Virus record (IMG/VR): IMGVR_UViG_3300037634_000578
Location: 1-36,299 of that record
From: a virus
Lineage: Duplodnaviria; Caudoviricetes
Length of the DNA stretch: 36,299 nucleotides
Strand: one strand, 5' to 3'
Numbering within the stretch: position 1 is the first letter of the stretch; each line of letters opens with the position of its first letter. Made by a program: the position numbers and the translations under genes. The notes under the pieces were generated by a model. That model ran no database searches. It saw only the letters and a program-made list of their open reading frames with translations, and was not told the DNA's origin. This document shows positions 5,403 through 32,910 of the stretch, in pieces.

Positions 5403-5729
5403 ATGTATAACTTAGTGTTTCTCCAAAAGGAGAACGATTTAAATAAGGTTCTTAGGAAGTTTAAACGAGATCCTAAGAGGTGCAGCATCCTGTTTGTGTC
5501 CTTGTGGGACAAGTGGTGTGAAAAACTCTTGTCCAAACTAAAGGAGAAATATACTGGGTCTGAAGGAGAGACTCTTTATATTGTTGATAGTTTAAATATG
5601 CCCCATAGCTTTGTTATCTATAACACAAATAAGACTCCTCACTTAATTCAACTTCGTAGAGACCAAACGTTCTCAGAGGATTACCTTCCCCATGTTTATA
5701 AAATGCTTAAACTTAATCAAGTTTCTTAG
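5403..5729 (+). CDS. Thioredoxin-fold protein with non-canonical active site (WDKWC)
   Basis: 108 aa. ILFVSLWDKWCEKL sits at the WCxxC position, followed by LYIVD and a cis-Pro-like KTPHLI segment. Confidence 0.65.
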   Translation: MYNLVFLQKENDLNKVLRKFKRDPKRCSILFVSLWDKWCEKLLSKLKEKYTGSEGETLYIVDSLNMPHSFVIYNTNKTPHLIQLRRDQTFSEDYLPHVYKMLKLNQVS

Positions 5730-6060
5730 ATTGCATCTCTATAAACTTTTCAATCTTTAGTTTATATTTTTTTTCTTTAGTATACAAGAGCTTGAGATTA
5801 TTAACTATGATTGTTGTAAAGTAATTAAAAGCAGTCCCCTTCTTAGGTGTGAAGTTTTTAATGATTTTTAAAATGAGTGCAAAGCAATCTTGCTTAGCAT
5901 CGTCAGGATCAATTTTAAAGTTGAAGGATCCGATGATATTAGTTATTAGAAGGTCGAACATTTTTACCAACTCATCCTCATTTTCTTTTGGATTTTCTTT
6001 ATAAGCTAAGAGGAGTGCCTCGAACTCCTTATTGTCTATATAATATTTTTTATTTCCCAT
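5713..6060 (-). CDS. Late-transcription sigma factor (T4 gp55-like, region 2 only)
   Basis: YYIDNKEF...FNF...DAKQDC...IKNFTPKKGTAFNYFTTII.N...KEKK parallels gp55 YVNNKE...FNF...NFD...AYIT...N...KE.K. Size 115 aa. Confidence 0.85.
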   Translation of the reverse strand: MGNKKYYIDNKEFEALLLAYKENPKENEDELVKMFDLLITNIIGSFNFKIDPDDAKQDCFALILKIIKNFTPKKGTAFNYFTTIIVNNLKLLYTKEKKYKLKIEKFIEMQSKKLD

Positions 6061-6073
6061 ATACTTATTATAG
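6060..6073. promoter_or_regulatory. Overlapping divergent -10 elements in a 13-nt gap (sigma factor / polymerase part 1)
   Basis: The - strand reads CTATAATAAGTAT-ATG (6-nt spacer). The + strand has TATACT (6060-6065) 8 nt before ATG 6074. Neither gene has an SD. Confidence 0.55.
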
Positions 6074-7096
6074 ATGTTTGATTTAGATAGTATCTATTCT
6101 GACCATAAAATTGAACCTGAAAATCCCTTATGTGATGGGTGTTCTATTTTAAGTAAGAATAAACCATGCCATTCGGTCATGGATTATAAAAGACTTGGAC
6201 AGTCTGATGTACTGTTCCTGTCTGATTCTCTTAAGAATTCTTATGGAAAAACATTTCCATTTACGAAGCCAGAGTTTGCTGTACTTAAGGAATCATATAA
6301 AGAGAACTTCGCTTGTGCTGCTTCAGTGAAGTGCCCTAGTGTTAAGGAAGCAGATATGTCTCCTGATAATATGAACTTATGTCGCGTTCATTTGCAGGCA
6401 ACAATTGATAAAATTAAACCTAAGCTGATTCTTCCTTGCGGCAACTTAGCTATGAAAATGCTAATTAAGAAGAGCGGCATTACAGATAAACGAGGTAAAT
6501 CTTTTGAGTATACAACTGACAGTGGGCATTCTAGTATCGTTGTTCCTATTTTTCACCCTTACTTTGTGGCTAAAGAGCCTAGACACAGGTTCCTCTTCGA
6601 AACGGATATCCGAAACGCGCATGAGAAATATGTACTTGGCAAAACGTACGAAGGAAAGCTCGAATACAAAGTCCTCACAGAAATCGAAGAGGTGGAAGTA
6701 CTGGGGAAGATGCTGAAGGATACTGATGAGACTTTAGCTGTTGATATTGAAACGACTGGCCTCAATTTCTTGACAGATAACATTCAGACTATTGCCTTCT
6801 CTTCTCATGAAACCAATTGGGTTATTCCCTTAGATCATAAGGACAGTCCCTTCAAGAAGGGGAGTTGTTTTTATAAGGGCGTTTGGAGTAACTTAAGAAA
6901 GATCCTAGAGAACCCGCGCAGCAAGAAAGTATTCCATAACGCTAAGTTTGATTTGAAGTTCCTAATCAATCATGGAATCTACACTAAGAATGTGTGGGAT
7001 ACTAAGATCATGCATCACCTTCTAGATGAGAACCTACCTAAGAGTTTGATGGATTTGGTTAAGCTTTACTTTCCGACTGAGCTTGAGAGTCTTTAA
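6074..7096 (+). CDS. polA: Split family A DNA polymerase, part 1: family 4 UDG-like (Fe-S) domain + 3'-5' exonuclease ExoI/ExoII
   Basis: UDG-4-like CDGC, VKCP, NLC, IKPKLILPCG and PIFHP. Exonuclease VDIETTGL (ExoI), FHNAKFD (ExoII), WDTKIMHHLLDEN. Ends before ExoIII. Confidence 0.88.
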   Translation: MFDLDSIYSDHKIEPENPLCDGCSILSKNKPCHSVMDYKRLGQSDVLFLSDSLKNSYGKTFPFTKPEFAVLKESYKENFACAASVKCPSVKEADMSPDNMNLCRVHLQATIDKIKPKLILPCGNLAMKMLIKKSGITDKRGKSFEYTTDSGHSSIVVPIFHPYFVAKEPRHRFLFETDIRNAHEKYVLGKTYEGKLEYKVLTEIEEVEVLGKMLKDTDETLAVDIETTGLNFLTDNIQTIAFSSHETNWVIPLDHKDSPFKKGSCFYKGVWSNLRKILENPRSKKVFHNAKFDLKFLINHGIYTKNVWDTKIMHHLLDENLPKSLMDLVKLYFPTELESL

Positions 7097-7604
7097 GTAA
7101 AGCTTCTAGTGCAAGAATCCTACTCTCGTTATGCTTCATAATTACATCTTGTTCATCGTCCCTTGCATCAATATCTGCTTGGGATACGGTGTTATGAATC
7201 TGTCCAAACTTCTTAAACCAGTTTCTACCATTCTTTCTGAAGAGTGGAAGGAATACGAAAAGGATTAACCACCAGTAACCTAATGTTTTAATGAGCCCAC
7301 CCGTCTCATGTAAAGTAGAAGCGGTGCTGCCCTGAACGGGTCCTGCGCCTGCTACCTGCCCTACGATTGCCGCAGGGCTTTGAGAGGGGAATATCATCTC
7401 TGTAACCATAACCCCTCCCGCTGCCCCTGCTGCAACGGCTGCTGGCTCAGGTATAAAGGCTGCAACTGCACCTCCTCCAACTGCACCTCCAATAGCGTGT
7501 TTGATTGTACTACAGCTAGTTATAAATAACATTAAGCTGATAAGAAGAAGTTTTTTCATTGGTCTCCCGATCTGGCTTCCGTATGTTCTTGGTCCTGTTG
7601 GCAT
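7059..7604 (-). CDS. Putative lipoprotein/membrane protein (lipobox, glycine zipper, C-proximal TM), inserted antisense in the polymerase locus
   Basis: RBS AAGGAGA lies 6 nt before ATG 7604. A second ATG at 7559 begins MKKLLLISLMLFITS-C. Contains GGAVGGGAVAA/AVAAGAAGG zipper and TM LGYWWLILFVFLPLF. Confidence 0.75.
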   Translation of the reverse strand: MPTGPRTYGSQIGRPMKKLLLISLMLFITSCSTIKHAIGGAVGGGAVAAFIPEPAAVAAGAAGGVMVTEMIFPSQSPAAIVGQVAGAGPVQGSTASTLHETGGLIKTLGYWWLILFVFLPLFRKNGRNWFKKFGQIHNTVSQADIDARDDEQDVIMKHNESRILALEALLKDSQAQSESKA

Positions 7605-7623
7605 AAAAATTCTCCTTCTACGT

Positions 7624-7636
7624 CTATAATATATAG
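7624..7636. promoter_or_regulatory. Bidirectional element CTATAATATATAG
   Basis: The + strand gives CTATAATA, with TATAAT 8 nt before ATG 7639. The - strand gives CTATATATTA upstream of the 7604 gene. Confidence 0.6.
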
Positions 7637-7638
7637 TA

Positions 7639-8118
7639 ATGCTTACCATAAACAATCCGAATACTTTTGATTGGTCCAGCATAAGTCTTTCCGATTGTGC
7701 GGAAGGAAATGCTATGGATACTTATTTTACCCTTAAGTTATTCGACCTAATCTGTGAGAAATTAGGGGACAGCCCTATGATGAAGCTCATTGAGCAGGTA
7801 ATCATGCCCTCCCTTGAAGTATTTTCAGAGATGGAATATGAAGGTCTTGACGTAGATTTAGATACCTTAACCAAAGTAGGCAGAACTTTAACCTCTAAGA
7901 ACATGGACGAGGAGGACCTTTTGTACTCATGTAAGGGGGTTCAGAAAACAGACAACCTCTCTTCCAATAATCATCTTATTGAGGTGCTTTATACACGGGA
8001 GGGAGGGATGGAATTATACCCTCCTGATAAGACCGCTAGTGGGAAGCCTTCTGTGTCTGCGCCCACACTTAAATTACTTTTAGAACACATAGATGAGGAG
8101 CTAAAGAAGCGTGAGTAA
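7639..8118 (+). CDS. polA: Split family A DNA polymerase, part 2: ExoIII region + thumb
   Basis: FDW...CAEGNAMDTYFTLKL (ExoIII position), VFSEMEYEGLDVD, NLSSNNHLIEVLY, KTASGKPSVS match the PolA exonuclease C-end and thumb. Confidence 0.88.
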   Translation: MLTINNPNTFDWSSISLSDCAEGNAMDTYFTLKLFDLICEKLGDSPMMKLIEQVIMPSLEVFSEMEYEGLDVDLDTLTKVGRTLTSKNMDEEDLLYSCKGVQKTDNLSSNNHLIEVLYTREGGMELYPPDKTASGKPSVSAPTLKLLLEHIDEELKKRE

Positions 8119-9226
8119 GTGGCAGCATAGAGATGAAGGTAAAAAGATTAGCAAGTCTGTGGTCTCTTCCAAAACTACGGAAGAGTTACTACAGTCTAAG
8201 AAATTTTTAAAAGGGCTCCTTGATTTAAGGAAGTCTGAGAAATTAGCTAAGACATATATCCAAGGGACTAAGAAAGCAATTGAGTATAATGAGAAAGATA
8301 AAGTTTTTGTAGACTTTAGATTTGATGGTACTACTACGGGCAGGCTTTCTTGCGCAGCATACACCGCTAAGAAAGCTATGGGGGTCTCTTTCCACACTCT
8401 CCCCAGAGACACAGAGACCAACATCAGAAGCATTTTCAAAGCTCCGAAGGGACAAGCATTCATTACTATTGATTATGCCGCTATGGAGCTTCGTGTGCTG
8501 TCTCACATAGCTAGGGAGGGGAATATGCAGACCGCATTCAATCAGGGCGCAGATCTCCACACTTACACGGCTCAACTGCTGTTCAATAAGAAAAAAGTAA
8601 CTAAACAAGAACGCCAGATAGCCAAAACGGTATCCTTTCTTATCGTATACGGAGGAGGACCTTTCAATCTCAGTGAGACAATGGGCATTCCTATGAAACG
8701 AGCGGAAGCTATAATAGATAATTATAAAAATGTGTATCCTGGAATCTTTGAGTATATGGAATTTGTTAATGAATATATTAAGCGTAATGGGTATGCTTAT
8801 ACTATATTTGGGAGGCGCAGGAATTTGCCTGATGTTTATTCCCGTGATAGATCAGTGGTTAATCGCGCTCTTCGACAAGGACTTAACTTTACAATCCAGA
8901 GTACAGCGTCTGATATTTTACTCACTTCTCTTTTGGGTATTGCTAAAGCTTTTACTTTGCGCGGCCTTACGGCTCGCCCAGTAGCAACTGTTCATGATAG
9001 TGTAGAAATAATTTGTGAGCAAGAAGAAATTTCTGAGGTACTAAAGATAGTCTATAATGAGATGGTAAACTACCCCTCAATTAGATCAATTTTTAATATC
9101 CATTTTGATGTACCATTAAAAATTGATGCTGAAGTAGGAAGATCTTTTGGGGACGGAGTTTCCGTAGAGTTTAATGCTGCAGGAGAGGCGTTAAATATGG
9201 ACGAAATCTCTACATATTTCAGATGA
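8111..9226 (+). CDS. polA: Split family A DNA polymerase, part 3: palm/fingers catalytic core
   Basis: KLAKTYI, GTTTGRLS, motif A IDYAAMELR, DLH, motif B RQIAKTVSFLIVYG, FGRRR, NFTIQSTASD, motif C VHDS. GTG start with GAGGAG upstream. Confidence 0.95.
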   Translation: MSKWQHRDEGKKISKSVVSSKTTEELLQSKKFLKGLLDLRKSEKLAKTYIQGTKKAIEYNEKDKVFVDFRFDGTTTGRLSCAAYTAKKAMGVSFHTLPRDTETNIRSIFKAPKGQAFITIDYAAMELRVLSHIAREGNMQTAFNQGADLHTYTAQLLFNKKKVTKQERQIAKTVSFLIVYGGGPFNLSETMGIPMKRAEAIIDNYKNVYPGIFEYMEFVNEYIKRNGYAYTIFGRRRNLPDVYSRDRSVVNRALRQGLNFTIQSTASDILLTSLLGIAKAFTLRGLTARPVATVHDSVEIICEQEEISEVLKIVYNEMVNYPSIRSIFNIHFDVPLKIDAEVGRSFGDGVSVEFNAAGEALNMDEISTYFR

Positions 9227-9477
9227 ATATAAAAGAAAAATTAAAATATATATACTACACTTTAAGATACCTTAAGCTTTCTCAAGTCAGACAATTTTTT
9301 TACTCCCTTTATAGGTGGGTCAGAAGTGGTTTTAAAGTTTCAAAAGTTGCAGAAGAAAGGTTGGATATTTGTAAGGAATGTCCTCACTATAAAGAAGACA
9401 GGTGTTCTTTGTGTGGATGTCATACTCCCACAAAGACAAGATGGTTCACAGAAGAGTGTCCTATAGAAAAATGGTAG
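9223..9477 (+). CDS. Small cysteine-rich (metal-binding) phage protein
   Basis: ERLDICKECP...RCSLCGC...K......CPIEKW pattern. ATGA overlap with the upstream gene. Confidence 0.75.
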   Translation: MNIKEKLKYIYYTLRYLKLSQVRQFFYSLYRWVRSGFKVSKVAEERLDICKECPHYKEDRCSLCGCHTPTKTRWFTEECPIEKW

Positions 9478-17562: not shown

Positions 17563-18708
17563 ATGAGTGATAAATTAAAAATACTGGCTGCTCCCGCCAA
17601 TGAGGGAGGATGTGCATACTATAGAATTATCGCACCGTATAGAAAGCTGGAAGAACTGTATCCTGACCAAGTAGAGGTGCGCTGGGATAAGAACCCTTTA
17701 GGAATAGACGAGAAGACTGGTCGCTGGCAAGAGGGTTGGGACTATGAAAATCTAAAGTGGTGTGATGTTGTTGTTACTGGTAACTTGAGCAACTTCGGAG
17801 GAAACTACACGGCAAGGATTGTAGGAAAGGCCAAGGAGTTTGATAAGTTTGTCCATTATGATACGGATGACCTACTGACAGATCTGTACGAAGGGCACAG
17901 GCTTTACGGAGTTTATAAAGAAAAAGGTCTTAGTGAAATCACTAAGTTTATTTATAATAACTCTGATCTAGTTACCGTCACCCAGAGGAAGTTTGCAGAA
18001 AGGATAAAGCCTTTTTGCCGACACACTTTAGCTGTGATTAAGAACTGTGTGGATTATAACCTGCCTGCCTGGAATATGCAGCGACTAATGACTAAGAAGA
18101 ATTATTGTCGCTTTGGTTGGGCAGGAGGAATCCACCATGAGCAGGACGTAAAGTACTTTGCAGGTGTCCCTCAAATGGTTAATCAGCGAGCAGGGAGAGA
18201 GAATGTAAGGTGGGATTTTTATGGGGCACCTCCTCCTAACACCCCAGAAGATGATTGGCAAATAGAGGTTTGGAAGAACTATAAAAACATTATCATGAGG
18301 GGCTTTAAAGGCCAACCAAATTTCACTATTAATTATGCTCTTCCTGCTGACAGGTATGGACAATTCTTTACGAATATGGATATTGCTGTGGCTCCTCTCG
18401 AAATGAATCCCTTTAATGATTCTAAGTCGGAGATTAAAGTTGCGGAGTGTGGGAGATATGCCATTCCGTTAGTTGCTTCAAATGTAGGGTGCTATGACGA
18501 GTGGATTGTGAATGGGGAGACTGGCTTTTTGATAGATCCTGATAAGGGAACCAAAGAGTGGGTTAAGATTTTGACGAAATTAGCTAAGGATAAAAAGTTG
18601 CGAGAAAGGATGGGCCGCAATCTTAAAAAGATAACAGATGAGAATTTTGATATGAATAAAAATGTCAAGGACCGCTTAGATCTGTACAAAAAATTAATAA
18701 ATGAGTAG
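17563..18708 (+). CDS. Glycosyltransferase, GT-B fold (GT4-like)
   Basis: GCAYYRI, YDTDDLL, FGWAGG..H..D, DIAVAPL...FNDSKSEIK..E, VASNVGCY, GETGFL. Confidence 0.9.
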   Translation: MSDKLKILAAPANEGGCAYYRIIAPYRKLEELYPDQVEVRWDKNPLGIDEKTGRWQEGWDYENLKWCDVVVTGNLSNFGGNYTARIVGKAKEFDKFVHYDTDDLLTDLYEGHRLYGVYKEKGLSEITKFIYNNSDLVTVTQRKFAERIKPFCRHTLAVIKNCVDYNLPAWNMQRLMTKKNYCRFGWAGGIHHEQDVKYFAGVPQMVNQRAGRENVRWDFYGAPPPNTPEDDWQIEVWKNYKNIIMRGFKGQPNFTINYALPADRYGQFFTNMDIAVAPLEMNPFNDSKSEIKVAECGRYAIPLVASNVGCYDEWIVNGETGFLIDPDKGTKEWVKILTKLAKDKKLRERMGRNLKKITDENFDMNKNVKDRLDLYKKLINE

Positions 18709-19489
18709 TGTTAAGATTTTGAGTGGGTGGTCGAACCCTGGTGGCTCGACGGTACACCACATAGCTCTAACGAATTTGTTAAATTCCAAGGGCGTCGCTT
18801 GTACGTTTTATGGTCCTCACGAGTATCATTTGGATAAATGTAAGGGGGAGAAGATTGATAAAATCTTGATTACTCCCGAGGATATTTTAATATCCCATTT
18901 TTTAAATGTGCCTAATACTCCAGGGGGTTGGAGACAACATATTCTTAGTTGTCACGAGACTAATTTATTTCCGTTAGCTCACTTAACCTCAGATCAAATT
19001 ACCACATACGATACTATCCAATACGTAAGCAACCGTCAAAAGGAGTGGCATAGCGTGGATCACCCTTCGGTGGTTATTCCTCCTATCGTCGCTCAGATAG
19101 ACTGGGCCACTCCTGAGAATAAGTGTGCTGGCGTAATTGGAAGTATCGACTCTCACAAACAACCTCATTTGTCTATTCAAGCTGCATTGGATGATGGTTT
19201 TAATCAAGTGCTTTTATTTGGTGAGATTACGGAGTCACCTTACTTTAATGAGAAAGTTAGTCCTTACGTTGAAAGAGGACAGGCTGCGCTCAGAGGCCAT
19301 GAGAGCGACCGTAAGGCGATGTACGAGCAGATCGAAGCGGTATACCATTCCTCCCTTCGGGAGACCTACGGGCTCGTAGAGGCCGAGTGTAGGCTTGCTG
19401 GGATCCCCTTCGTCGGAACGTCCAATGAGCAGCCGATCCTTACAAAAGATGAAATATGGGAGAGATGGGAAGAATGTCTGAATCTATAA
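18701..19489 (+). CDS. Glycosyltransferase, compact GT-B (GT4-like)
   Basis: N-terminal PGGS, IGSIDSHK, SSLRETYGLVEAEC..AGIP (ExFGL..xE motif). Confidence 0.8.
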   Translation: MSSVKILSGWSNPGGSTVHHIALTNLLNSKGVACTFYGPHEYHLDKCKGEKIDKILITPEDILISHFLNVPNTPGGWRQHILSCHETNLFPLAHLTSDQITTYDTIQYVSNRQKEWHSVDHPSVVIPPIVAQIDWATPENKCAGVIGSIDSHKQPHLSIQAALDDGFNQVLLFGEITESPYFNEKVSPYVERGQAALRGHESDRKAMYEQIEAVYHSSLRETYGLVEAECRLAGIPFVGTSNEQPILTKDEIWERWEECLNL

Positions 19490-20217
19490 CTGTAATACTT
19501 AATTGCTACAAAAGACCTGAGTACCTTGAGGAGCAAATAAAGGCTATTCGAGCACAAAGCATTCCTCCTGAGAGTATATGGCTGTGGGTTAACAGCACTA
19601 AGGCGAATAGAAAAACTAAATTTTATAATCTTGGACTAGACAAGGTATTTAAGTCTGATACAAACTGTAAGTACCATGCTAGGTTTGCAATAGGGCTTAT
19701 CGCTCAAACTGATTATGTTGCTTTTTTTGATGATGATACTATTCCTGGGAAAAAGTGGTTTGAAAATTGCCTAAATACAATGGAGGAAACTCCTGGTATT
19801 TTAGGGGGGGCTGGTTGCGTCCTTCAAAGCAGGAGTTATGTGCAGCATCGTAGGATGGGTTGGCCTACTCAAAATGAGTTTACGGAGCCTGTCGATCTAG
19901 TAGGTCACGCATGGTTTATGAGACGAGATGATTTAAATCATATGTGGAGTGAGACTCCCTTTACCTTAGAGAACGGAGAGGATATACAGTTGGGGTATTT
20001 GGCTAAAAAGAACGGAGGGGTCCAATGTTATTGTCCTCCTCATCCTGTAGATAAGCCTGAACTGCATAGCTCCTTAAAGGCAGAGCAATACGGGAACGAT
20101 GCTAAAGCTTCTTCTAATGGAGGGTTAATGTCTATCCCTCAATTTTACGAACAAAGAGATCAGTGCATAGATTATGGAATAACGAACGGATGGGAAACGG
20201 TGTTAGGTGTTAAATGA
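19474..20217 (+). CDS. Glycosyltransferase family 2 (GT-A)
   Basis: ITVILNCYKRPEYL, YVAFFDDDTIPG (DxD), GEDI. Start taken at MSESIT (19474). Confidence 0.85.
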   Translation: MSESITVILNCYKRPEYLEEQIKAIRAQSIPPESIWLWVNSTKANRKTKFYNLGLDKVFKSDTNCKYHARFAIGLIAQTDYVAFFDDDTIPGKKWFENCLNTMEETPGILGGAGCVLQSRSYVQHRRMGWPTQNEFTEPVDLVGHAWFMRRDDLNHMWSETPFTLENGEDIQLGYLAKKNGGVQCYCPPHPVDKPELHSSLKAEQYGNDAKASSNGGLMSIPQFYEQRDQCIDYGITNGWETVLGVK

Positions 20218-21203
20218 TTTTATTAAGCTATGGAACTCGGCCCGAATATATTAAGCTTTTACCTCTTATAAAAGAGCTAAAAAAAGAAAATTTACCCGTT
20301 AAGATAGTTCAGATTGGACAACACACTAGTTTATTAAACGACGATTATGATGATCGGTTACAAGTTTTTAAGAGAGAAAATAGACTAGATTCGATTGTAA
20401 CCTCCGTGCTTGCTCATGGGAACCATTTATATAAAGGAATTTCGCATGTGGTAGTTCAAGGAGATACAACAAGTGCTATGGCAGTAGGCTTAGGAGCTTT
20501 TCATAGGGAAATCCCAGTGTACCATATAGAAGCTGGATTGCGGACGGGAGATAAACAGAACCCCTATCCTGAAGAGGCAAATAGGCGAATTTTATCAGCT
20601 ATAGCTTCTACTCATTTTTGTCCTACTAAAAAGGATAAAATAAATTTGATAGTAGAGGGGTTTGAAAAAGATAAAATTGTAGTTACTGGAAATACAGCAA
20701 TTGATAATTTGAAGGGAATTAAAAGTGGAAGTAGTCAAGAGATTTTGGTTACGATGCATAGGAGAGAAAACTTAGACAGTTTAGATTCTTGGTTTTCTTC
20801 TATTGAGGAGTTAGCAGAGAAGTATCCTCAGTACAAGTTTGTATGCCCTGCTCACCCTAATCCCTTAGTCCAGCATCACGCGAGGGACATTTTTAAAAAG
20901 GTGCGTGTTATTAAACCTTTAGAGCATTTAGAAATGGTCAGACGTATTGCAAAGTGTAAGCTTGTAATCACTGATAGCGGAGGAATTCAGGAAGAATGTA
21001 GTTGGTTCAAAAAGCTATGTTTTGTTTGTCGAATGGCTACTGAGAGGCCCTCTCAATCAGGAGTTCTCTGTAGACACCCTCACATCCTTGTTGATAATTT
21101 TAAATTAAATCATAATCGAGTGATAACACAAACCTGCCCTTTTGGAGATGGAAATGCAGCAAGAAAAATCGCAGAACAAATCTGCCAAGACGTTCTCAAG
21201 TGA
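20214..21203 (+). CDS. wecB: UDP-N-acetylglucosamine 2-epimerase (non-hydrolysing)
   Basis: GTRPEYIK, GQH, VQGDTTS, HIEAGLRT, PYPEEANR, TGNTAID, HRREN, TDSGGIQEE, TERP, PFGDGNAA. Confidence 0.93.
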   Translation: MILLSYGTRPEYIKLLPLIKELKKENLPVKIVQIGQHTSLLNDDYDDRLQVFKRENRLDSIVTSVLAHGNHLYKGISHVVVQGDTTSAMAVGLGAFHREIPVYHIEAGLRTGDKQNPYPEEANRRILSAIASTHFCPTKKDKINLIVEGFEKDKIVVTGNTAIDNLKGIKSGSSQEILVTMHRRENLDSLDSWFSSIEELAEKYPQYKFVCPAHPNPLVQHHARDIFKKVRVIKPLEHLEMVRRIAKCKLVITDSGGIQEECSWFKKLCFVCRMATERPSQSGVLCRHPHILVDNFKLNHNRVITQTCPFGDGNAARKIAEQICQDVLK

Positions 21204-21984
21204 GTTTGATAAGCTATTTCAGAAGCTGAAGGATAATGAGCCCTTTGCTTTTAGCCGATTTTCAGATGGAGAGGTTTACATCCTTAAAGGAGAGAAGTTA
21301 GTTCTAGCTCCCGACCATTACATTACAGGGGAAAGGTCAGGAGGAGGGGTTTATACTAAAGAGGAGCATAAAAGCTTCGACCCCGAGAAGGACTCGTTCT
21401 TCCAGGAAAAACTTATAGAAGCTTTACAGCATAGGCAGCACAACTACTTTAAAGGGTTAACTGGTGTAGCTGATGAGGATATTGCAGGGAAGGATGCTTT
21501 TCAGTTTCAGTTAGATCTATGTGGGGAAGGAGACGAAGACCACCTTACTTTTTCTAACCTGTTTATTAACAATAATTACCCCCGATTCATGCAGGAGATG
21601 CTTCCTGTAATTTGTGAAAAGGAAATAGTTGTTATAGCTAATGAAGCTGTTAACTTGGATGAGTTACCTCTAAAAGTTATTAAGCGTTTCAATGTTGGAA
21701 GCAATTGTATCATTAATGATTACCATTTAGTTGAAGAGATTAAGAACTGGATTGCCTCAAACCATATTGATGATACGATATTCCTATTCTCCGCTTCTAC
21801 CTTGAGTAATTACATTATTCATGAATGTTTTAAAGAGCATAGTAATAATACTTATTTAGATATAGGTAGTTGTTTAAATCCGTGGATGGGCTTGGAAGGA
21901 TGGAAACACAGCCGAGCATACTTACAGCATTGGATATTAAAAATGCCTAACAAGTATGGAACCCAAGTTGACACATGGATTTAG
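21142..21984 (+). CDS. GT-D fold (DUF1792-like) putative glycosyltransferase
   Basis: FAFSRFSDGE near the N-terminus and YLDIGS near the C-terminus. Confidence 0.7.
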   Translation: MEMEMQQEKSQNKSAKTFSSEFDKLFQKLKDNEPFAFSRFSDGEVYILKGEKLVLAPDHYITGERSGGGVYTKEEHKSFDPEKDSFFQEKLIEALQHRQHNYFKGLTGVADEDIAGKDAFQFQLDLCGEGDEDHLTFSNLFINNNYPRFMQEMLPVICEKEIVVIANEAVNLDELPLKVIKRFNVGSNCIINDYHLVEEIKNWIASNHIDDTIFLFSASTLSNYIIHECFKEHSNNTYLDIGSCLNPWMGLEGWKHSRAYLQHWILKMPNKYGTQVDTWI

Positions 21985-22343
21985 TTTTAATAACGCCCGA
22001 CTACTACGAGTTTGTTAGGGAACTGCGACTGCATCCTGAAACTAAGAGTGGATTCTTAGAGGAGGCAACCATTACGCCTGAGCAGCAAATCAAATATATG
22101 GAAAGGCATAGGTATAATTATTATATCTGTCTATTATATGGTAGCCCAGTGGGGTATGTGGGGGCCATAAATAGTGATATACGGTTCTGCACAGACCCCG
22201 ATTTTCAGGGTATGGGAGTGGGGTCATTTATGCTCTCGAAAATTAAAAAACTATACCCTGAAGCCACAGGACGGATTCTTAAGGACAATATTGGGAGCCA
22301 GAGAGTGTTCGATAAGTGTGGCATAGACTATAAGATTATATGA
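21975..22343 (+). CDS. GNAT N-acetyltransferase (PseH-like)
   Basis: PDFQGMGVG acetyl-CoA motif A and NIGSQRVF.K.G. Adjacent to an aminotransferase. Confidence 0.85.
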   Translation: MDLVLITPDYYEFVRELRLHPETKSGFLEEATITPEQQIKYMERHRYNYYICLLYGSPVGYVGAINSDIRFCTDPDFQGMGVGSFMLSKIKKLYPEATGRILKDNIGSQRVFDKCGIDYKII

Positions 22344-22960
22344 AGAGGATCGTCCATAATCCGTACAAAATCGTAAAGATGTTTGAGGAAGAGGTAGCTG
22401 AATACACAGGGGCTCCTTACGCTGTCTCTGTAGATAGTTGTACAAATGCTATCTTTCTGTGCTGTAAGTATTTGAATGTAACACAAGTTACTATTCCAAA
22501 GCACACTTACTTGTCTGTACCAATGTCTATCATCCACTCTGGAGCGGAGGTAGTCTTTGAGGATAGAGATTGGTCAGGGATGTACAAGCTTAAACCCTAC
22601 CCTATATTTGATGCTGCTAAACGGTTTACCTCCGATATGTATGTTCCAGGCTCTTATATGTGCCTCTCGTTTCACATTAAAAAACTTCTTCCACTAGGCA
22701 AAGGTGGCATCATTCTTACGGACAATAAATATGCTGCTGAGTGGTTTAGGAAAGCACGATACGAGGGTAGGAGCGAGAAGAACTATCATGAGGATGATAT
22801 TGATATGTTAGGGTGGAATATGTATATGACCCCGCAACAGGCGTCTCATGGGTTAGCTCTCATGCAGAATTACCCAGAGCATGTAGAAGATCTCGGAGAG
22901 AATAATGGCTACCGAGATCTAACCACTAACACAGTATTTAAGGACTGCAAAGTATTATGA
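22340..22960 (+). CDS. DegT/DnrJ/EryC1/StrS-family PLP aminotransferase (unusually short)
   Basis: FEEEVAEY.G..YAVSVDSCTNA, DAA, SFHIKK...GKGG, GWNMYM. Only 206 aa. Confidence 0.85.
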   Translation: MKRIVHNPYKIVKMFEEEVAEYTGAPYAVSVDSCTNAIFLCCKYLNVTQVTIPKHTYLSVPMSIIHSGAEVVFEDRDWSGMYKLKPYPIFDAAKRFTSDMYVPGSYMCLSFHIKKLLPLGKGGIILTDNKYAAEWFRKARYEGRSEKNYHEDDIDMLGWNMYMTPQQASHGLALMQNYPEHVEDLGENNGYRDLTTNTVFKDCKVL

Positions 22961-23853
22961 TTCACATAGTAACACTACATTTTGGAACACAGGCTTGGTT
23001 TGATATTCAGAAAAGATATATCACTAAGTACACTACGGGCGATTATAAAGTATGGATCGGCACATATAGAAACGAAATCCCTGAAGACTTTGATTTGCCT
23101 GACAACTGGCAGCACATGGATTTAGATAAAGACTACCCTTCAGATGGTATTAATGAGCATTATGCTCAGACAGAGTTTATGTACTCTAATTATTTAAGGG
23201 ATGAGATGAAGGATGACGATGTGCTTATTTTTATTGATAGTGATGCATTTCCAGTCACGGACAAATGGACACAGAAGATTCAAAATCTTTTTGAGAGTGG
23301 ATCAGAGGACGGTCCTTGCGATGTATTAGGGATAGCTCAGCCAGAGAATAAAGGAATAGCGGCAACTGACGATTACGATCCATACCCTGACCTATGTTTT
23401 TTCGCAACCACTAAAAAGGTTTGGGAAGATAATAATTTAGAGTGGGGCCTATTCTTACCCAAACACCAGAACCCTGGCTTCGGAATGCTAGACCGTATTA
23501 AAGCTGCAGACCTTGCATTAATGTATATTCAAAGAACAAATAGCTTCGAAGCTAACAGTGTCATGTTTGGTGTATATGGTGATATGATTTACCACCAGCA
23601 TTGTGGTTCAAGAGCGATTATAGGGCGACCCCTGGCAACTAACAAAGCCAAAGCCATGAATAAAAGACAATGCTATACAGGTCGTGACCTTTCTTACCGA
23701 CTGTCCCTAGGTAATTTCTTTGAAGTAGAGTTCGAAGACGTATGCCCCGATATCATTGAGACGAATACGGCTATCTTTGATATAATTTATGAAAGACTGG
23801 TAAAAGATGCAGACGCTAATTTTGTACCTCGTTATTTCTTAGGAAGACCATGA
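22957..23853 (+). CDS. Putative GT-A glycosyltransferase-like protein
   Basis: IHIVT N-terminal strand and LIFIDSDAFP DxD motif. Operon context. Confidence 0.6.
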   Translation: MIHIVTLHFGTQAWFDIQKRYITKYTTGDYKVWIGTYRNEIPEDFDLPDNWQHMDLDKDYPSDGINEHYAQTEFMYSNYLRDEMKDDDVLIFIDSDAFPVTDKWTQKIQNLFESGSEDGPCDVLGIAQPENKGIAATDDYDPYPDLCFFATTKKVWEDNNLEWGLFLPKHQNPGFGMLDRIKAADLALMYIQRTNSFEANSVMFGVYGDMIYHQHCGSRAIIGRPLATNKAKAMNKRQCYTGRDLSYRLSLGNFFEVEFEDVCPDIIETNTAIFDIIYERLVKDADANFVPRYFLGRP

Positions 23854-24581
23854 TTAAGGAACTTGCTATCATAACAAACACTCACTCTAAAAATAGTGAT
23901 TTATGGGAAGCGTACATTGGACAGATACAGAAGTACATGGATGAACCTTTGTACTTTTTTACAGATCAACATCCTCCCTTTGATACTTCGGGGGTGGAGT
24001 CTCTGCTATATGACGCAACTTTCAACTTTAGAACACAGTTTCTACAGGGTCTAGTTCATGTTAATCATGAGTTTTGTTTGTACATGAATGAGGATTATCT
24101 TTTATATGACAACCCAGATAAGAAAAAATTGTCTGAGTACATTCAAGTTCTACGAGACAACCCCCAACTCTCTTTTATTAGATTAGGAAAGGGCATAGAT
24201 CACTTTAACTATCCAGTGACAAAGACGCTCAATTATTTGGATGTTAGGAACCCCTATTTTTATTCACAAACTGCGACTCTTTGGAAAACAAATCATCTAA
24301 AAGCAGTTCACGTTCATGGGCCTGATTTGCACATAGGAGGGGAGGATATGTCCCAACAGTTTGAAGTTGCTGCCCATAAAACCTGTTATGATTTGGGAAT
24401 TCAGGGAATGTATCATTATGACGGTGAATCCAAGCGTGGAGAACATCACTATGATTCAAATGTATTCCCGTATACTGCCTCTGCCTTAGTTAAGGGTAAG
24501 TGGTGTTCGGAGTACAAAAAAGAACTTCTTCCTATTTTTGAAGAGTACGGAATTGATAAAGACAGTAGAGAGTGGACATAA
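23850..24581 (+). CDS. Putative GT-A glycosyltransferase-like protein
   Basis: THSKNSDLW, LYMNEDYLL, FIRL, Q.TLWK, KGKW pattern seen in polysaccharide-locus proteins. Confidence 0.6.
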   Translation: MIKELAIITNTHSKNSDLWEAYIGQIQKYMDEPLYFFTDQHPPFDTSGVESLLYDATFNFRTQFLQGLVHVNHEFCLYMNEDYLLYDNPDKKKLSEYIQVLRDNPQLSFIRLGKGIDHFNYPVTKTLNYLDVRNPYFYSQTATLWKTNHLKAVHVHGPDLHIGGEDMSQQFEVAAHKTCYDLGIQGMYHYDGESKRGEHHYDSNVFPYTASALVKGKWCSEYKKELLPIFEEYGIDKDSREWT

Positions 24582-25306
24582 TGAAACTGATACAAAATAA
24601 TAAAGATAATATCACGGGATTCTCTGTGGTAGAGGGTACTGATTTTGGAGTTGACGAAGACAATAAAAAGGCTATGGGATACCAGCACCATGACGCATTA
24701 TGGTGGGGTGGGGTAGACAAGGTTGAAGCTTCTAGACCTAAGACGATGGATTTCGACCAGACTATGAACTGGTTTAAATCCATGTTTGCTTATGTCGCTA
24801 GACAAACTTTAGATGTTTACAACCCAGACTCATTGTTAGAGTTAGGTTGCGGTAGTGGTTTAATGTCTAGGATTTTTAAGCGTTACAAACCCGACATGGT
24901 TGTGGCTACTGTGGACGCAAATCAAGTGGTGAAAGAGAAGAGTCCTTATGTTGGAGAGAATCATTTCCTAGCTAGATCTGATAAGAAATTAGATATTACA
25001 GACGAGGACGGCAAGAGAAAGTTCTTTGATGTGGTTATATCTCTAGAACATTTCGAGCACATCCCCCCAGAAACTTGTGATACTATGATGGAGAACATTA
25101 GAGATCATACGCAGCCAGGAGCACACCTCATATTTACTGCTGCTGAATGGGAGTATGAGGACGATCAGAACCATATACATTGTAATGCACAGACGGAGGA
25201 GTACTGGCAGGATTATGTGGTCAAGTTTGGGTTTGAGGTTATTGAGAATCCTTTTACAATCGGTAGAGCGGGAGACACCTGGGAAGTTTTCGCTAGGAGA
25301 GTGTAA
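24572..25306 (+). CDS. Class I SAM-dependent methyltransferase
   Basis: LLELGCGSG, FDVVISLEHFEHI, HIHCN....YW. Confidence 0.9.
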   Translation: MDIMKLIQNNKDNITGFSVVEGTDFGVDEDNKKAMGYQHHDALWWGGVDKVEASRPKTMDFDQTMNWFKSMFAYVARQTLDVYNPDSLLELGCGSGLMSRIFKRYKPDMVVATVDANQVVKEKSPYVGENHFLARSDKKLDITDEDGKRKFFDVVISLEHFEHIPPETCDTMMENIRDHTQPGAHLIFTAAEWEYEDDQNHIHCNAQTEEYWQDYVVKFGFEVIENPFTIGRAGDTWEVFARRV

Positions 25307-26277
25307 TGTTTGTTTGTACGGATCTAAGAGCAGAGGTGCCCGACACTAATGCCCACTCTTTTGGTTTAGAAAAGCATCATGATGAGGAGTCTTTTGATAA
25401 CTTGTATTACGGTTATGATGCAACCGTTCTAGCGTACAGATCAGGAAATAGACAAGTGATGATAAATCAGTGGGCACCTACTGAATTTGCTCAAGTTAAA
25501 GATCATCACGGATTAACTCCATTAGAGCATAGCGCATCCTCAACTGAAGTTTATTCAATCTGTCCATATACAGTGGATTGGTTAAATAAAGTTGATTCTC
25601 CAAAGTACAAGTATATCTTTTACCCCTTCAATAAAAAAGATATACCTTTCGCAACAGAGAAGGAATATGATGTATGTTACTTTGGGGGGATTCATTCTGT
25701 TATGCATCAAGAGTGTATGGCGGTTATGCGTCTTTTTAAGTATTGCTACATGACTATGGATCACGGCATTGGCCCACTAACTCAAGCTTATCTTCCTATG
25801 GCTACTCACATTAATCTCTCCCATAGAGAGAAGATCGTTCAAGTTGGGAAATGTAAGGTTTCTGTTTGTTATCATATCGTACCCTTATACGAGTTTCACA
25901 TAAAAAATATAAAGAGCTATCCAGAGTGGGAAAAGAACGAAGCATTTTCTCGTCTCGATCAGGCTATCCTGCCTCAATTCAAATCCAGAATGCATGAAGC
26001 TGCTATGGCAAGGACGCTTAATTTAGTCTATAGAGATCCGTGGGGAATCTCAGAGGACTATTACACTCCTGACGTTGATTTTGTTTACTTTGATTCTAAT
26101 GAAGAGTTAGAGGAGAAACTACAGCACATTCTAAATAACTGGGAAGACTACGAGAAAATGATTGAAAACGCCTATAATAAAGCGTTGAACTATACTACTG
26201 ATAGAATGTTCGATGTCATCAAAAAAGGAAAATTATGGAAACCAAAGAATGCAGATCGTGCGGATCTGATAGCTTAA
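25306..26277 (+). CDS. Putative glycosyltransferase (CgeB / GT-B C-terminal domain)
   Basis: KEYDVCYFG, KSRMHEAA, Y.PDVDFVYF...EL.EKL..IL...MIENAY.KA. Confidence 0.7.
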   Translation: MFVCTDLRAEVPDTNAHSFGLEKHHDEESFDNLYYGYDATVLAYRSGNRQVMINQWAPTEFAQVKDHHGLTPLEHSASSTEVYSICPYTVDWLNKVDSPKYKYIFYPFNKKDIPFATEKEYDVCYFGGIHSVMHQECMAVMRLFKYCYMTMDHGIGPLTQAYLPMATHINLSHREKIVQVGKCKVSVCYHIVPLYEFHIKNIKSYPEWEKNEAFSRLDQAILPQFKSRMHEAAMARTLNLVYRDPWGISEDYYTPDVDFVYFDSNEELEEKLQHILNNWEDYEKMIENAYNKALNYTTDRMFDVIKKGKLWKPKNADRADLIA

Positions 26278-27452
26278 TCTCTATCTTAGACTTAGGCGAT
26301 CAACCTTGGTGTAACGATCTAATTACTGCTAGGTACAGCAGTGATGAAACAAAGGTATATCCTCTGCATTTAGTTTCTTGCAGAGACTGCGATCTACTTC
26401 AATTAGATTATACGGTCCCTAAAGAGGTTATGTTTACAAAACACGGGTATTTGTCAGGTATGACTCAAACTCTCACAGACCATTTCTACGAAATTGCAAA
26501 AGAGAACGTAGAGCAGTTCAGCGTAGATTCCAAGGATTTGGTAGTAGACATTGGGGGAAATGACGGCACCCAGTTGTTCCAGTACATAAAGCTTGGCATC
26601 ACCAATGTAGCCAATGTAGAGTCTGCAAAGAATATTGCTGAGATCTCATCCCAAAGAGGTATTTTCACTATTAACCGATTCTTTAATGAGGAGACCGTTA
26701 AGAAGTCTTTTGCGGAAGGCGCAGCCAAAATTATTAATGCTGCGGGGGTTTTCTTTCATTTAGAGGAGTTGCATAGTGTGATTAAAGGTGTGAAGTATCT
26801 CCTCGCAGATGATGGTGTGTTTACTGTACAATGTATGTATGCGGGTGAGTTGGTCAAAAATGAAAGCTTTGATATGATCTATCATGAGCATCTCTGCTAC
26901 TACACCCTTAAGAGCTTAATGTCTCTTTTGCAACCCTATGGTTTGAATGTGTTTGATGCTTATCACTCCCCCATCCACAGTGGCTCTTTGATTGTTAAGG
27001 TGTGTCATGGTAAAAAGTACCCCTCCACTCCTCGAATGATGGAGACTTTGGAGATGGACAGTGAATTTAATTTAAGTAGCTTTCTTCGTTTTGGTGATAA
27101 GATGAGAAAAAAACGTGGACAACTGAAAGAGCGTCTGGAAAAGCTAAAGGAGAAGGGAAAAACCGTGTGGGCTTACGGGGCTCCTGCCAAGGGGAATACG
27201 CTTTTATGTTATGAAGGAATCGACTCCACTTTAGTAGACCGCGCCGTGGAGATCAATGAGTTAAAAATAGGTAAGTTACTGCCTGTCTCTAACATTCCTA
27301 TCCACCGTGAAGATTCATCGGAGTATCCTGATTATTATTTGCTCCTTTCCCATAATTTTGAGGAAGAGATTTTGGAAAGAAATAAAGATTTATTAGATAA
27401 GGGAGTTAAGTTTATTATTCCTTTTCCTGAAGTGCATGAGGTAAGTGCATGA
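26235..27452 (+). CDS. NDP-sugar C-methyltransferase (zinc-binding N-domain + SAM + C-terminal domain)
   Basis: CRSCG, LDLGDQP, CRDC.L.QL, DIGGNDG, FDMIYHEHLCYY, IHSGSL, YGAPAKGNT. Confidence 0.92.
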   Translation: METKECRSCGSDSLISILDLGDQPWCNDLITARYSSDETKVYPLHLVSCRDCDLLQLDYTVPKEVMFTKHGYLSGMTQTLTDHFYEIAKENVEQFSVDSKDLVVDIGGNDGTQLFQYIKLGITNVANVESAKNIAEISSQRGIFTINRFFNEETVKKSFAEGAAKIINAAGVFFHLEELHSVIKGVKYLLADDGVFTVQCMYAGELVKNESFDMIYHEHLCYYTLKSLMSLLQPYGLNVFDAYHSPIHSGSLIVKVCHGKKYPSTPRMMETLEMDSEFNLSSFLRFGDKMRKKRGQLKERLEKLKEKGKTVWAYGAPAKGNTLLCYEGIDSTLVDRAVEINELKIGKLLPVSNIPIHREDSSEYPDYYLLLSHNFEEEILERNKDLLDKGVKFIIPFPEVHEVSA

Positions 27453-28390
27453 ATGTTTTAGTTACAGGAGCCACAGGATTTCTAGGAAGAGTCTTAGTAA
27501 AGAAGTTGCGCTCTTTAGATATGAAGGTTTTTGAGTGTAATACGAAAAACGCTAACTTATTAAACTACAAGAACTTAGAAGTATTTGACCATGATACTGA
27601 TGTTAAGTTTGATATGATTTTTCACCTTGCTGCTAATACTAAGGCGGGGGATTGGTGTGTGTATAATTCGGGAACCCAATGGATTACCAACCAGCTAATT
27701 AATACTAACATTTTAAAGTTCTGGGCAGAGAGGCATCCCTTCGCTAAGTTGGTAGCTATTGGAACCAGTTGTAGTTATGATCCTGATTTGCCTTTGCGCG
27801 AGGATCAGTACGAAGAGGGCTCGCCCGAAGCTAACCTGTATTATTATGCCCACACTAAGAGAATGCTTTTGACGGGCCTGAAAGCCTTGCATAAGCAGTA
27901 TCACGCTGACTGGCTGTATGTTGTGCCTTCTACACTTTACGGACCAGGGTACGATAGGAGCGACAATCATTTCATTTTTGATCTCGTCAGAAAGATCTAT
28001 AAAGGAAAGTACGAAGGTGAGGAGGTAGAGTTGTGGGGTAATGGCGAACAGAAGCGCGAATTGATCCACGTTAACGATTTCGTAGAACTGCTGATGAAGG
28101 TTCTTTATAGGAAGAATGAAGTTATAAATATAGGAAGAGGGGAGGAGTTACCTATTTCGGTTTATGCTAAAGGAATATCTAACATCTTAAACTACGATGC
28201 TACTCAAATAGTCTATAATACTAACAAGTTCGTCGGTGTTAAGTCTAAGTGTCTCGATACGACTAAACTTAAAACCTATGTTCCTGATTTTAAATACACT
28301 CCATTAGAGGAAGGACTCAAAGAATTAATTGAATGGGAGGATCAACAATATGGAAAGAAAATATTTACCAACGCTGTCGGAATTGATTGA
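27449..28390 (+). CDS. NAD-dependent epimerase/reductase, GDP-L-fucose synthase (Fcl)-like
   Basis: VTGATGFLG, HLAA, GTSCSY, YAHTKR (YxxxK), LYGPG, LWGNG...RELIHV.D. Confidence 0.85.
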   Translation: MNVLVTGATGFLGRVLVKKLRSLDMKVFECNTKNANLLNYKNLEVFDHDTDVKFDMIFHLAANTKAGDWCVYNSGTQWITNQLINTNILKFWAERHPFAKLVAIGTSCSYDPDLPLREDQYEEGSPEANLYYYAHTKRMLLTGLKALHKQYHADWLYVVPSTLYGPGYDRSDNHFIFDLVRKIYKGKYEGEEVELWGNGEQKRELIHVNDFVELLMKVLYRKNEVINIGRGEELPISVYAKGISNILNYDATQIVYNTNKFVGVKSKCLDTTKLKTYVPDFKYTPLEEGLKELIEWEDQQYGKKIFTNAVGID

Positions 28391-28733
28391 TAGGCTGTCT
28401 ATTGCACAGCTAAAAGAGGTATTCATTCCTGAACACAAAGAGGAATATGCTGAAGAGATTAAAGATATTATGCATGATATATCCTCCTGTGGTCTTGATG
28501 GAGAATTGGTTAGAGCTATAGTGGTTCTTGCTCAAATGAATTTACACATTTGGCACAATGAATCTAATTACAGGAACGGAATAAAAGATGGAAACAACCT
28601 AGAGCTTACGCACGGCATTAATGGAATTAGAAACACAGCTAAGAATAAGGTGCAGGAGAAGTTTGGGGGTAGGAAGGATTACAAGATCGACTGTCTAGCA
28701 GCAGACTTTAAGGACTGGGAGGTTAGCTGGTGA
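28350..28733 (+). CDS. Hypothetical helical protein of the polysaccharide locus
   Basis: RBS GGAGG upstream of ATG 28350. Contains TLSELIDRLSIAQLK...NLHIWHNE...NGIRN. Confidence 0.75.
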   Translation: MERKYLPTLSELIDRLSIAQLKEVFIPEHKEEYAEEIKDIMHDISSCGLDGELVRAIVVLAQMNLHIWHNESNYRNGIKDGNNLELTHGINGIRNTAKNKVQEKFGGRKDYKIDCLAADFKDWEVSW

Positions 28734-29836
28734 GTATATCACAGGATTCAGACACGAAGCCAGGGTATAGGGATCTTCGGGAGGACAATTGGAATGATTG
28801 TCCCTTTCCTAAGATTTTAATTACGGGAGGTGCTGGGTACATCGGGACAGTCTTAGTTCAGAAATTAATGGAGTCAGCAAAAATGTGGACCCAGAAGAGC
28901 GTTTCCAAAAAGGATATGAAGGGTCGCTGGTATAAGGATTGTGGATCTACTATCCAAGGGTTTAAGAAAATAACCGTTTACGACAACCTAATGTATCAAC
29001 AAACGCCCCTCACTCAGTATTGTTATAGACCTGAATTTGAGTTTGTAAGAGGGGATGTGCGTGACCAAGAAAAGCTGAGAAAGTATGTAGAAGAAGCAGA
29101 TGTTATTATCCCTCTCGCAGCAATTGTTGGGGCTCCTGCGTGTGAAAGGGATAAAGAGTTAGCCACTGCTGTAAACTATGAACACGTTAAATTTATTTGT
29201 GAGAATGCAAAGCCTCTCGCTAAAATCATTTATCCAAATACTAATAGCGGCTACGGAATAGGAGAGGCAGGGGTACCTTGTACGGAGGATATGCCTCTCA
29301 CTCCTATTAGTCACTACGGTAGAACAAAGTGTGATGCGGAGAGAGTTGTTTTAGACCATGGTGGGATCGTTTTTAGGCTGGCAACGGTGTTCGGCGTATC
29401 CCCTCGACAACGCTTAGACCTTTTAGTTAATGATTTTACATACAAAGCCTATAAGCAAGGGTATATTGTTTTGTTTGAACATAATTTTGTAAGGAATTAT
29501 ATTCATGTACAAGACGTTGCGTTAGCCTTTATGAGAGCTATGTATTATTACAGAAACCCGAACCGTAAGATGTGGGGGGTTTATAATGTGGGGCTTTCGT
29601 CGGCCAACCTTACTAAGTTAGAGTTAGCGGAAAAGATTAGGGAGCAGGTGCCAGGATTCTCCATTCAATGCGACGAGATTGCCGAAGACCCTGACAAGAG
29701 AGACTATGTTGTATCGAATGCGCGATTCGAGAAACAAGGATGGAGACCTCGATACACTTTAGAGAGGGGAATTGAGGAACTTCTTAAAGCTTTTGAAATA
29801 CTTGGACCCTCTTTAAATCAATACACGAATTTATAA
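28730..29836 (+). CDS. NAD-dependent NDP-sugar epimerase/dehydratase (extended SDR)
   Basis: ITGGAGYIG, GDVRD, PLAAIVGAPAC, YGRTK, RLATVFG.SPR.RLDLLVNDF, RNYIHV.D, DKRDY.V. Confidence 0.92.
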   Translation: MSISQDSDTKPGYRDLREDNWNDCPFPKILITGGAGYIGTVLVQKLMESAKMWTQKSVSKKDMKGRWYKDCGSTIQGFKKITVYDNLMYQQTPLTQYCYRPEFEFVRGDVRDQEKLRKYVEEADVIIPLAAIVGAPACERDKELATAVNYEHVKFICENAKPLAKIIYPNTNSGYGIGEAGVPCTEDMPLTPISHYGRTKCDAERVVLDHGGIVFRLATVFGVSPRQRLDLLVNDFTYKAYKQGYIVLFEHNFVRNYIHVQDVALAFMRAMYYYRNPNRKMWGVYNVGLSSANLTKLELAEKIREQVPGFSIQCDEIAEDPDKRDYVVSNARFEKQGWRPRYTLERGIEELLKAFEILGPSLNQYTNL

Positions 29837-29837
29837 T

Positions 29838-31563: not shown

Positions 31564-31931
31564 TGTTGGATTTAGATGACCCGTTCCCGCCGATGAGGGC
31601 AGCTATTAATGAGTCCAAAAAGTCAAAACATAGGTTTCAAATAGGTGCTGCCATTGCCAAAGGTAAAAGAATCTTAGCTAAGGCTCATAATAGCCGCAAG
31701 ACTCATCCTATATTTGGATCGGGAGATTACTCGACCCTCCATGCTGAGAGCTATGCCATATACAAAGCAGTTCGTCAAGGGATAGACTTAGCGGGGACCA
31801 CTATTTATATCTATCGTCACAATAATAACTTAGCGAAACCTTGCCCTTGTTGCATGGGCCTCATTCATAAATATGGTATAAAAGAGGTCGTTTATAGTGG
31901 TAAAGAACTTAGGTCCAAGAGTGTCTGTTAA
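31563..31931 (+). CDS. Zinc-dependent cytidine/dCMP deaminase-family protein
   Basis: IGAAI, LHAE, KPCPCC, GIKEVVYS. Confidence 0.88.
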   Translation: MLDLDDPFPPMRAAINESKKSKHRFQIGAAIAKGKRILAKAHNSRKTHPIFGSGDYSTLHAESYAIYKAVRQGIDLAGTTIYIYRHNNNLAKPCPCCMGLIHKYGIKEVVYSGKELRSKSVC

Positions 31932-32781: not shown

Positions 32782-32910
32782 AATTTATTCTCCGTTTATA
32801 TTATATAGTAAAACTAAAAAAGAATAACCCCTAAAATATTATCAAGAAATAAAAAAAAATCATTATATAGAAATAATACCTCCAAAAAGTCAAATTGTCT
32901 ATAATAAGGT
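32782..32910. promoter_or_regulatory. AT-rich divergent promoter region
   Basis: The - strand has CTATATAAT at 32808 and 32870. The + strand has TATAAT at 32900-32905, 5 nt before the recA ATG. Poly-A tracts lie between. Confidence 0.6.

Follow-up and report, generated by a model that had tools for sequence, protein, structure and literature searches.

The window analysed here, the whole 36,299-nucleotide stretch of the virus record IMGVR_UViG_3300037634_000578 (Caudoviricetes), contains three open reading frames (ORFs), P1, P2 and P3, which in our assessment are pieces of one family A DNA polymerase (PolA) of the type with an N-terminal uracil-DNA glycosylase (UDG)-like domain. The products probably assemble non-covalently into a replicative three-chain enzyme, a proposal that is based on the anatomy of the fold and on the precedents of split Pfu, split gp43 and fragmented NrdA. 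At the level of sequence, the anatomy is demonstrably collinear, both cuts are conserved, purifying selection acts and the catalytic residues are invariant. An earlier note, made from the letters of the stretch alone, had already described a naturally split polymerase at this site. The parts and their motifs are located as follows:

6074-7096, plus strand: P1, 340 aa, UDG-like domain and N-terminal three quarters of the 3'-5' exonuclease.
6743-6751, plus strand: ExoI, D224/E226 of P1.
6950-6952, plus strand: ExoII, D293 of P1.
7639-8118, plus strand: P2, ExoIII helix, linker between exonuclease and polymerase, first half of the thumb.
7717-7719, plus strand: ExoIII, D27 of P2; the Tyr position is G23.
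8111-9226, plus strand: P3, 371 aa, second thumb helix, palm and fingers.
Within P3, plus strand: motif A, D121; motif B, K172/F176/Y180; motif C, D296.

The earlier note had the PolA motifs distributed collinearly over the three ORFs, and its coordinates are correct: the profile phrog_17 is tiled in order by P1 (482-785), P2 (797-930) and P3 (926-1243). P1 was said to carry the UDG-like domain together with ExoI and ExoII, in agreement with Pfam matches to UDG (PF03167, over cut-off) at residues 74-170 and to DNA_pol_A_exo1 at residues 200-336, the latter spanning only positions 3-131 of the 173 in the profile. P3 matches PF00476 over profile positions 51-380 with 258.8 bits against a cut-off of 34.3 and holds motifs A, B and C intact as described, which places the enzyme in family A. 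For P2, Pfam gives no match. Its profile aligns to residues 160-292 of the Klenow chain (E 3e-8), that is, to the ExoIII helix and the first thumb half, where D27 corresponds to the ExoIII Asp and G23 to the ExoIII Tyr, residues D501 and Y497 in E. coli numbering. Since these positions coincide, cut 1 parts ExoI and ExoII from ExoIII. The assignment of the ExoIII position and the thumb to P2 was hence right for the Asp and for one thumb half only; the Tyr is a Gly, and the thumb is shared with P3. Cut 2 lies inside the thumb between its two helices, the second of which stands on P3, an assignment that we take from the established PolA structure.

For the analysis of conservation, 98 loci were fetched; together with the window, 85 match all three parts and 75 are complete. 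Two of the complete loci were set aside (extra frameshift in P2), and the rest form 44 types at 95% amino acid identity. All 44 types have both cuts, so the breakpoints do recur in related contigs, and the loci sharing them range from 51 to 100% identity. Further fetching brought up no fusion of P1 with P2 among 162 loci and none of P2 with P3 among 166. The additional frameshift that breaks P2 in L011 (5581-6008), and also in L059, is either an error or real. Median ratios of nonsynonymous to synonymous substitution rates (dN/dS, Nei-Gojobori) are 0.133 for P1, 0.064 for P2 and 0.067 for P3, not near 1, as calculated from the 9-10 unsaturated of 946 pairs; for P2 the ratios range from 0.05 to 0.39. 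At the sequence level each part is under purifying selection. The integrity of the assembly was checked with contigs of sequencing runs: those of four runs not marked as source of the record have no insertion or deletion, none fuses parts 2 and 3, and one is gap-free over 7024-9412. Each of five long relatives, of which three are 99-100% complete, has one PF00476 match and no match to PolB or DnaE. Public runs with the region (n=20) are all marine metagenomes. Among GenBank phages there is no close relative, the best identities being at most 36%.

In the 43 aligned types (43/43) the six catalytic carboxylates, D224, E226 and D293 of P1, D27 of P2 and D121 and D296 of P3, are invariant, as are K172, Y180 and H295 of P3 and the Gly at the ExoIII Tyr position. 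The exonuclease carboxylates of ExoI, ExoII and ExoIII are thus all present, split over two chains, and the ExoIII Tyr is absent. Because D224/E226 and D293 are located on P1 and D27 on P2, it follows from the anatomy that the proofreading site would be a composite of both chains; exonuclease activity is presumed. In motif B, S175-F176-L177 of P3 (8633-8641) is likewise invariant (43/43), the intact protein P0243 having N-F-G; the Phe stands at the position that discriminates dideoxynucleotides (ddNTPs). P1 has the layout of UDG-PolAs, with a family 4 UDG-like domain N-terminal to the exonuclease domain (best PDB match 4zbx, E 8e-14). Its four cysteines C20, C23, C87 and C103 are invariant and H161-P162 is kept. 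The Asn preceding VKC in 4zbx is missing, and the GEAPG-type word of the intact P0254 is replaced; both are elements that we take to be uracil-excision motifs. Since the cysteines and His-Pro are kept and the canonical excision motifs are not, the UDG-like domain is likely structural or DNA-binding.

In the window the second junction reads:

8095-8100, plus strand: GAGGAG, a Shine-Dalgarno (SD)-like word 10 nt before the P3 start GTG at 8111; the P2 stop TAA lies at 8116-8118, giving an 8-nt overlap.

These elements, which the earlier note had listed, are evident in the sequence itself. An SD-like word is found upstream of P3 in 36/44 types, P2 starts with ATG in all types, and P3 starts with ATG or GTG (44/44). 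The offset between P2 and P3 is -8 in 29 types, -4 in 14 and -1 in one, which corresponds to two different frames. At the first junction, P2 overlaps the P1 stop by 1 nt (-1) in 22/44 types, the offset is 0 in one type, and an insert of 274-2287 nt separates the parts in 21. The three-gene clade has about 30 aa more at cut 2 than intact UDG-PolAs, most of which bridge this place by roughly ten residues or fewer: the C-terminal helix of P2 is longer by about 10 aa and P3 has an N-terminal extension of about 27 aa. AlphaFold2 models place helices at residues 142-158 of P2 and 2-19 of P3 (mean predicted local distance difference test score 68 and 82, respectively). W4, R7 and K11 of P3 do not vary and are located beyond the P2/P3 overlap; therefore the P3 extension is under selection at the protein level, which fits a role as interface. 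The extra helical residues that the earlier note had seen at this junction are thus real and partly invariant. They need not postdate the cut, because a relative with P2 and P3 fused in one chain (L423/P0218; L423:5998-7692) has about 45 aa inserted in its thumb that are similar to both junction extensions. The extra residues may be older than the thumb cut, and the fused chain would be either a pre-fission state or a re-fusion. A complex prediction for P1 and P3 with P2 as partner scored 0.86, no better than a control in which P1 and P2 were kept and P3 was replaced (0.86); split halves can pass by their likeness to solved structures.

A P2 profile was searched against 1.84 billion representatives. 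At the top stand separate proteins of about 160-180 aa, together with fragments; the next are eight proteins of 480-563 aa that start at the P2 start and run through the polymerase, followed by intact enzymes of about 800 aa. When the P2 alignment was used in an extended search, all matches were bacterial and of the Pol I type. The nearest intact proteins have the layout UDG-exonuclease-polymerase at about 30% identity, beyond the reach of our locus queries, which were split forms; these proteins came from the protein search. The locus searches yielded 424 redundant loci, divided into 290 three-gene loci (three of them further broken), 56 with P1 and a joined P2+P3, and 78 partial ones; P1 is joined to P2 in one ORF in none of the 424. 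The polymerase core of 319 loci forms 86 three-gene and 37 two-gene types (95%). Two-gene loci share with the three-gene loci the P1 end, the P2 start and the ExoIII Gly, and likewise tend to hold inserts, of up to 3.7 kb. A maximum-likelihood tree of the core was calculated from 42 of 64 rows, with 22 left out (including long branches) and distant three-gene loci under-sampled. Here, all split forms stand apart from the 9 intact ones (100/100), the window lies within a three-gene clade of 12 rows (100/99), and the three-gene locus L387 nests among two-gene forms (95/98, 100/97, 100/99). A single three-gene clade is rejected by the approximately unbiased test (p-AU 7.6e-8), and so is a single two-gene clade. 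According to this tree, the thumb cut was gained or lost on more than one occasion; one exonuclease cut followed by at least two thumb cuts is the most parsimonious history, and the relatives with only the first cut suggest stepwise splitting. L387 (3661-5246) is cut at the same thumb position and has a P3 extension similar to the one in the main clade; L388, L392 and L400 look alike.

The DNA at cut 1 and in front of the parts has features of its own:

7059-7604, minus strand: antisense cargo gene in cut 1, start at 7604 or 7559, no Pfam match, not part of the polymerase.
7625-7636, plus strand: TATA-rich, near-palindromic motif separated from the P2 ATG by 2 nt, a putative divergent promoter giving a leaderless P2 mRNA.
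6061-6073: gap of 13 nt between the head-to-head starts of a late-sigma-like gene (5713-6060, minus strand) and P1.

The earlier note was right in that cut 1 falls inside the exonuclease domain and holds a whole antisense gene. The gene probably starts not at 7682 but at 7604 (AAGGAG 7 nt upstream) or at 7559, the start of the homologues; the letters between the latter two positions add a short N-terminal piece that has an SD of its own, and most homologues begin with a lipoprotein-like signal at the position equivalent to 7559. The product is Gly/Ala-rich with a hydrophobic N-terminus ending in Cys, varies between strains and resembles only viral proteins without names. Among 79 distinct cut 1 junction sequences, 37 are empty and 42 contain genes of many unrelated families, mostly antisense, and types with and without insert are intermixed on the P3 tree. 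Ten cargo proteins were scanned and comprised one glycosyltransferase and no endonuclease. The antisense gene is variable cargo in cut 1.

A promoter of its own had been proposed for part 2, and TATAAT is indeed found at 7625-7630, 8 nt ahead of the P2 ATG. The surrounding TATA-rich motif is confined to alleles with antisense cargo: it occurs in 20/20 antisense-insert types, in 0/23 empty types and in the one sense-insert type not at all (0/1), with a background of 7 in 36,283 window positions, in a definition that was set after the sequences had been seen and after a first pattern had missed 8/21 insert types. A sigma-70 scan gave 9 sites against 10.6 expected, the P2 motif not being among them. 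The distribution fits a divergent promoter that restores P2 expression once coupling to P1 is lost. The motif is also present at 32799, in the interval (32781-32911) that separates a solitary minus-strand gene (31909-32781) from the UvsX-like gene, where it repeats the pattern of antisense gene and divergent motif seen in cut 1. Ahead of P1, a TAT.ATAG-type word is found in 43/44 types, which suggests a putative bidirectional promoter at 6061-6073 giving leaderless mRNAs; the late-sigma-like gene opposite P1 has a weak match to phrog_234.

The proposed mechanism gives P2 the role of a hub. The ExoIII helix at the N-terminus of P2 would dock into P1, so that the proofreading site has all four carboxylates, and the C-terminal helix of P2 would pair with the N-terminal helices of P3, rebuilding the thumb. 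Translation of P3 would begin at a separate start codon and be coupled to that of P2. In insert-free alleles translation of P2 would be coupled to P1, and in alleles with antisense cargo P2 would be driven by the divergent leaderless promoter. Historically, an intact ancestor of about 800 aa may have received a single exonuclease cut, common to the whole lineage along with the ExoIII change from Tyr to Gly, followed by a thumb cut gained, most parsimoniously, at least twice. At this point we want to mention several observations that weigh against this picture. Proofreading may be weak, given the missing ExoIII Tyr and the break in the loop by which intact relatives connect the two halves. Both the heterotrimer and its activity are deduced from the sequence. 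Loci were collected with split-form queries unable to reach intact genes, and the dN/dS values rest on about ten pairs, synonymous sites being mostly saturated, with P2 reaching 0.39. The TATA-rich motif, defined post hoc, may serve mainly the antisense gene. Finally, the base of the split lineage is a polytomy and the thumb insert of L423 stands in one chain; re-fusion or local recombination may have occurred, the P3 extension of L387 also being like that of the main clade.

Part of these doubts leads to another reading, in which P2 and P3 form the working polymerase and P1 is a loose or part-time partner, so that the composite exonuclease proofreads weakly or not at all. We regard this as unlikely. 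It is favoured by the replacement of the ExoIII Tyr by an invariant Gly, by distances of up to 3.7 kb between P1 and P2 and by the single P2+P3 chain kept in two-gene relatives. All four exonuclease carboxylates are, however, invariant across both chains, the ExoIII helix is an integral element of the exonuclease domain in Klenow, and the exonuclease domain is needed for PolA stability according to the accessible part of PMC10201439. Alternatively, programmed frameshifting or ribosomal bypassing could join the parts, at least P2 and P3, as in many types neither junction leaves a gap between the ORFs. This is very improbable: the overlaps demand frame changes that differ between types (-8 in some, -4 or -1 in others), few types have a slippery heptamer (7/44 before the P2 stop, 4/44 before the P1 stop), the conserved start codons (44/44) and SD-like words (36/44) speak for separate starts, and at junction 1 as much as 2.3 kb of inserted DNA, containing antisense genes, comes between the parts. 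A conserved offset with a slippery site was accordingly not found.

Slightly less credit still is due to RNA splicing or protein trans-splicing restoring one polypeptide. Phage PolA genes commonly carry introns and inteins, and intein-bearing UDG-PolAs are among the matches (PF14890 in P0065). In the three parts, however, Pfam shows no intein domain, and Rfam has no match at E<=1 in 6800-8400, in line with the earlier impression that no intein termini and no obvious group I intron are visible; no group I/II fold or Hint domain with restoration of the frame was detected. Even alleles without an insert stay out of frame, and the inserts themselves consist of unrelated protein genes. A single joint leaves out 7072-7637; it stems from a DNA run, has other letters in between and fits an insert-free relative. 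A decaying pseudogene or an assembly error could be suspected from a further break in 3/290 three-gene loci, and is next to negligible because the cuts are shared at 51-100% identity, dN/dS is far below 1, independent runs are free of indels and no other polymerase was found in the five long relatives. The earlier judgement that this is no pseudogene was sound. The sequence evidence thus supports well a conserved, selected three-gene PolA, and its assembly from three chains remains our preferred interpretation.

The genomic context is that of a T4-like myovirus. The 36.3-kb record, 33% complete according to CheckV, encodes a tail sheath, a tail tube, the late-sigma-like factor, an SbcCD-like nuclease pair, ribonucleotide reductase, a DnaB-like helicase, a gp32-like single-strand binding protein and a UvsX-like recombinase. 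Judged by its genes this is a T4-like set, yet with a family A polymerase. A 13-kb cassette at 17563-31007 contains glycosyltransferases, nucleotide-sugar epimerases, a DegT-type aminotransferase, a GNAT protein and a methyltransferase, possibly for glycosylation of virion or DNA. One relative of 130,604 bp (L260:5001-6059) lies within a record titled Prochlorococcus sp. AG-409-P03, which may be the host or a cell with which the phage was co-sorted; PF00124 was found in none of the five long genomes, L260 included.

Several known systems can be compared. The first split PolA was reported in 2023 for S-SBP1-like T7-like cyanophages, in the sections of PMC10201439 available to us, as a two-gene form with separate exonuclease and polymerase. 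Natural fission, overlapping stop and start codons and a predicted association of the products are common to both systems. In contrast to the single cut between exonuclease and polymerase domains of that cluster 5 enzyme (same sections of PMC10201439), the polymerase described here has two cuts inside domains, belongs to the UDG-PolAs, comes from a T4-like virus and carries cargo in cut 1. UDG-PolAs, among them those of N4-like cluster 17 and of SPO1-like phages, have the same family 4 UDG-like domain before exonuclease and polymerase; they are single chains there, and the passages of PMC10201439 on splitting name no split UDG-PolA. The same source, as far as available, describes CCPol-MP, a PolA chain that starts with the last exonuclease helices as do P2 and P2+P3. 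In CCPol the remaining exonuclease gene is absent and an unrelated protein caps the chain, whereas P1 keeps the complementary exonuclease fragment with its carboxylates (PMC10201439).

In T4-like Aeromonas and Acinetobacter phages, gp43 (PolB) is made as subunits from ORFs 2 bp to 3 kb apart, and reconstituted split Pfu is a precedent for non-covalent assembly (available portions of PMC3061061). Separate ORFs, variable DNA between them and T4-like phages are common features; unlike the three-gene PolA, split gp43 belongs to family B, consists of two pieces cut at the finger tip and has an undivided catalytic site (PMC3061061, same portions). NrdA-a/NrdA-b of a T4-like phage is similarly an essential enzyme from gene fragments with extra terminal tails (PMC3045599, in the part consulted). 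It is a ribonucleotide reductase split by the endonuclease mobE, in contrast to the ten cargo proteins scanned here, which included no endonuclease. The available parts of PMC11348598 and PMC4889955 hold nothing on a three-gene PolA, and none was found in the published literature searched, a scope with most subscription papers and all supplements outside it. What appears to be new is the number of three genes, the cuts through the exonuclease active site and the thumb, and the one-cut sister group.

To our knowledge, PolA has been treated as a single chain. The three-gene form shows how far the PolA fold tolerates fission and marks two permissive split sites for the engineering of Pol I-type enzymes. 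The natural series of intact, two-gene and three-gene forms is a test bed for the origin of subunit interfaces, in which a polymerase with and without its proofreading half becomes directly comparable. Surveys with polA as marker that require full-length genes would miss or discard this lineage, whose middle piece is without a Pfam match. Taken further, and here only tentatively, a large and deep marine T4-like lineage might replicate with a heterotrimeric PolA in which the proofreading site and the thumb are each built from two chains, with fission still in progress (one, two and three genes) and a thumb cut made two or more times in one and the same position; by expressing P1 separately the phage could then tune proofreading, and with it the mutation rate, through the ratio of the subunits.

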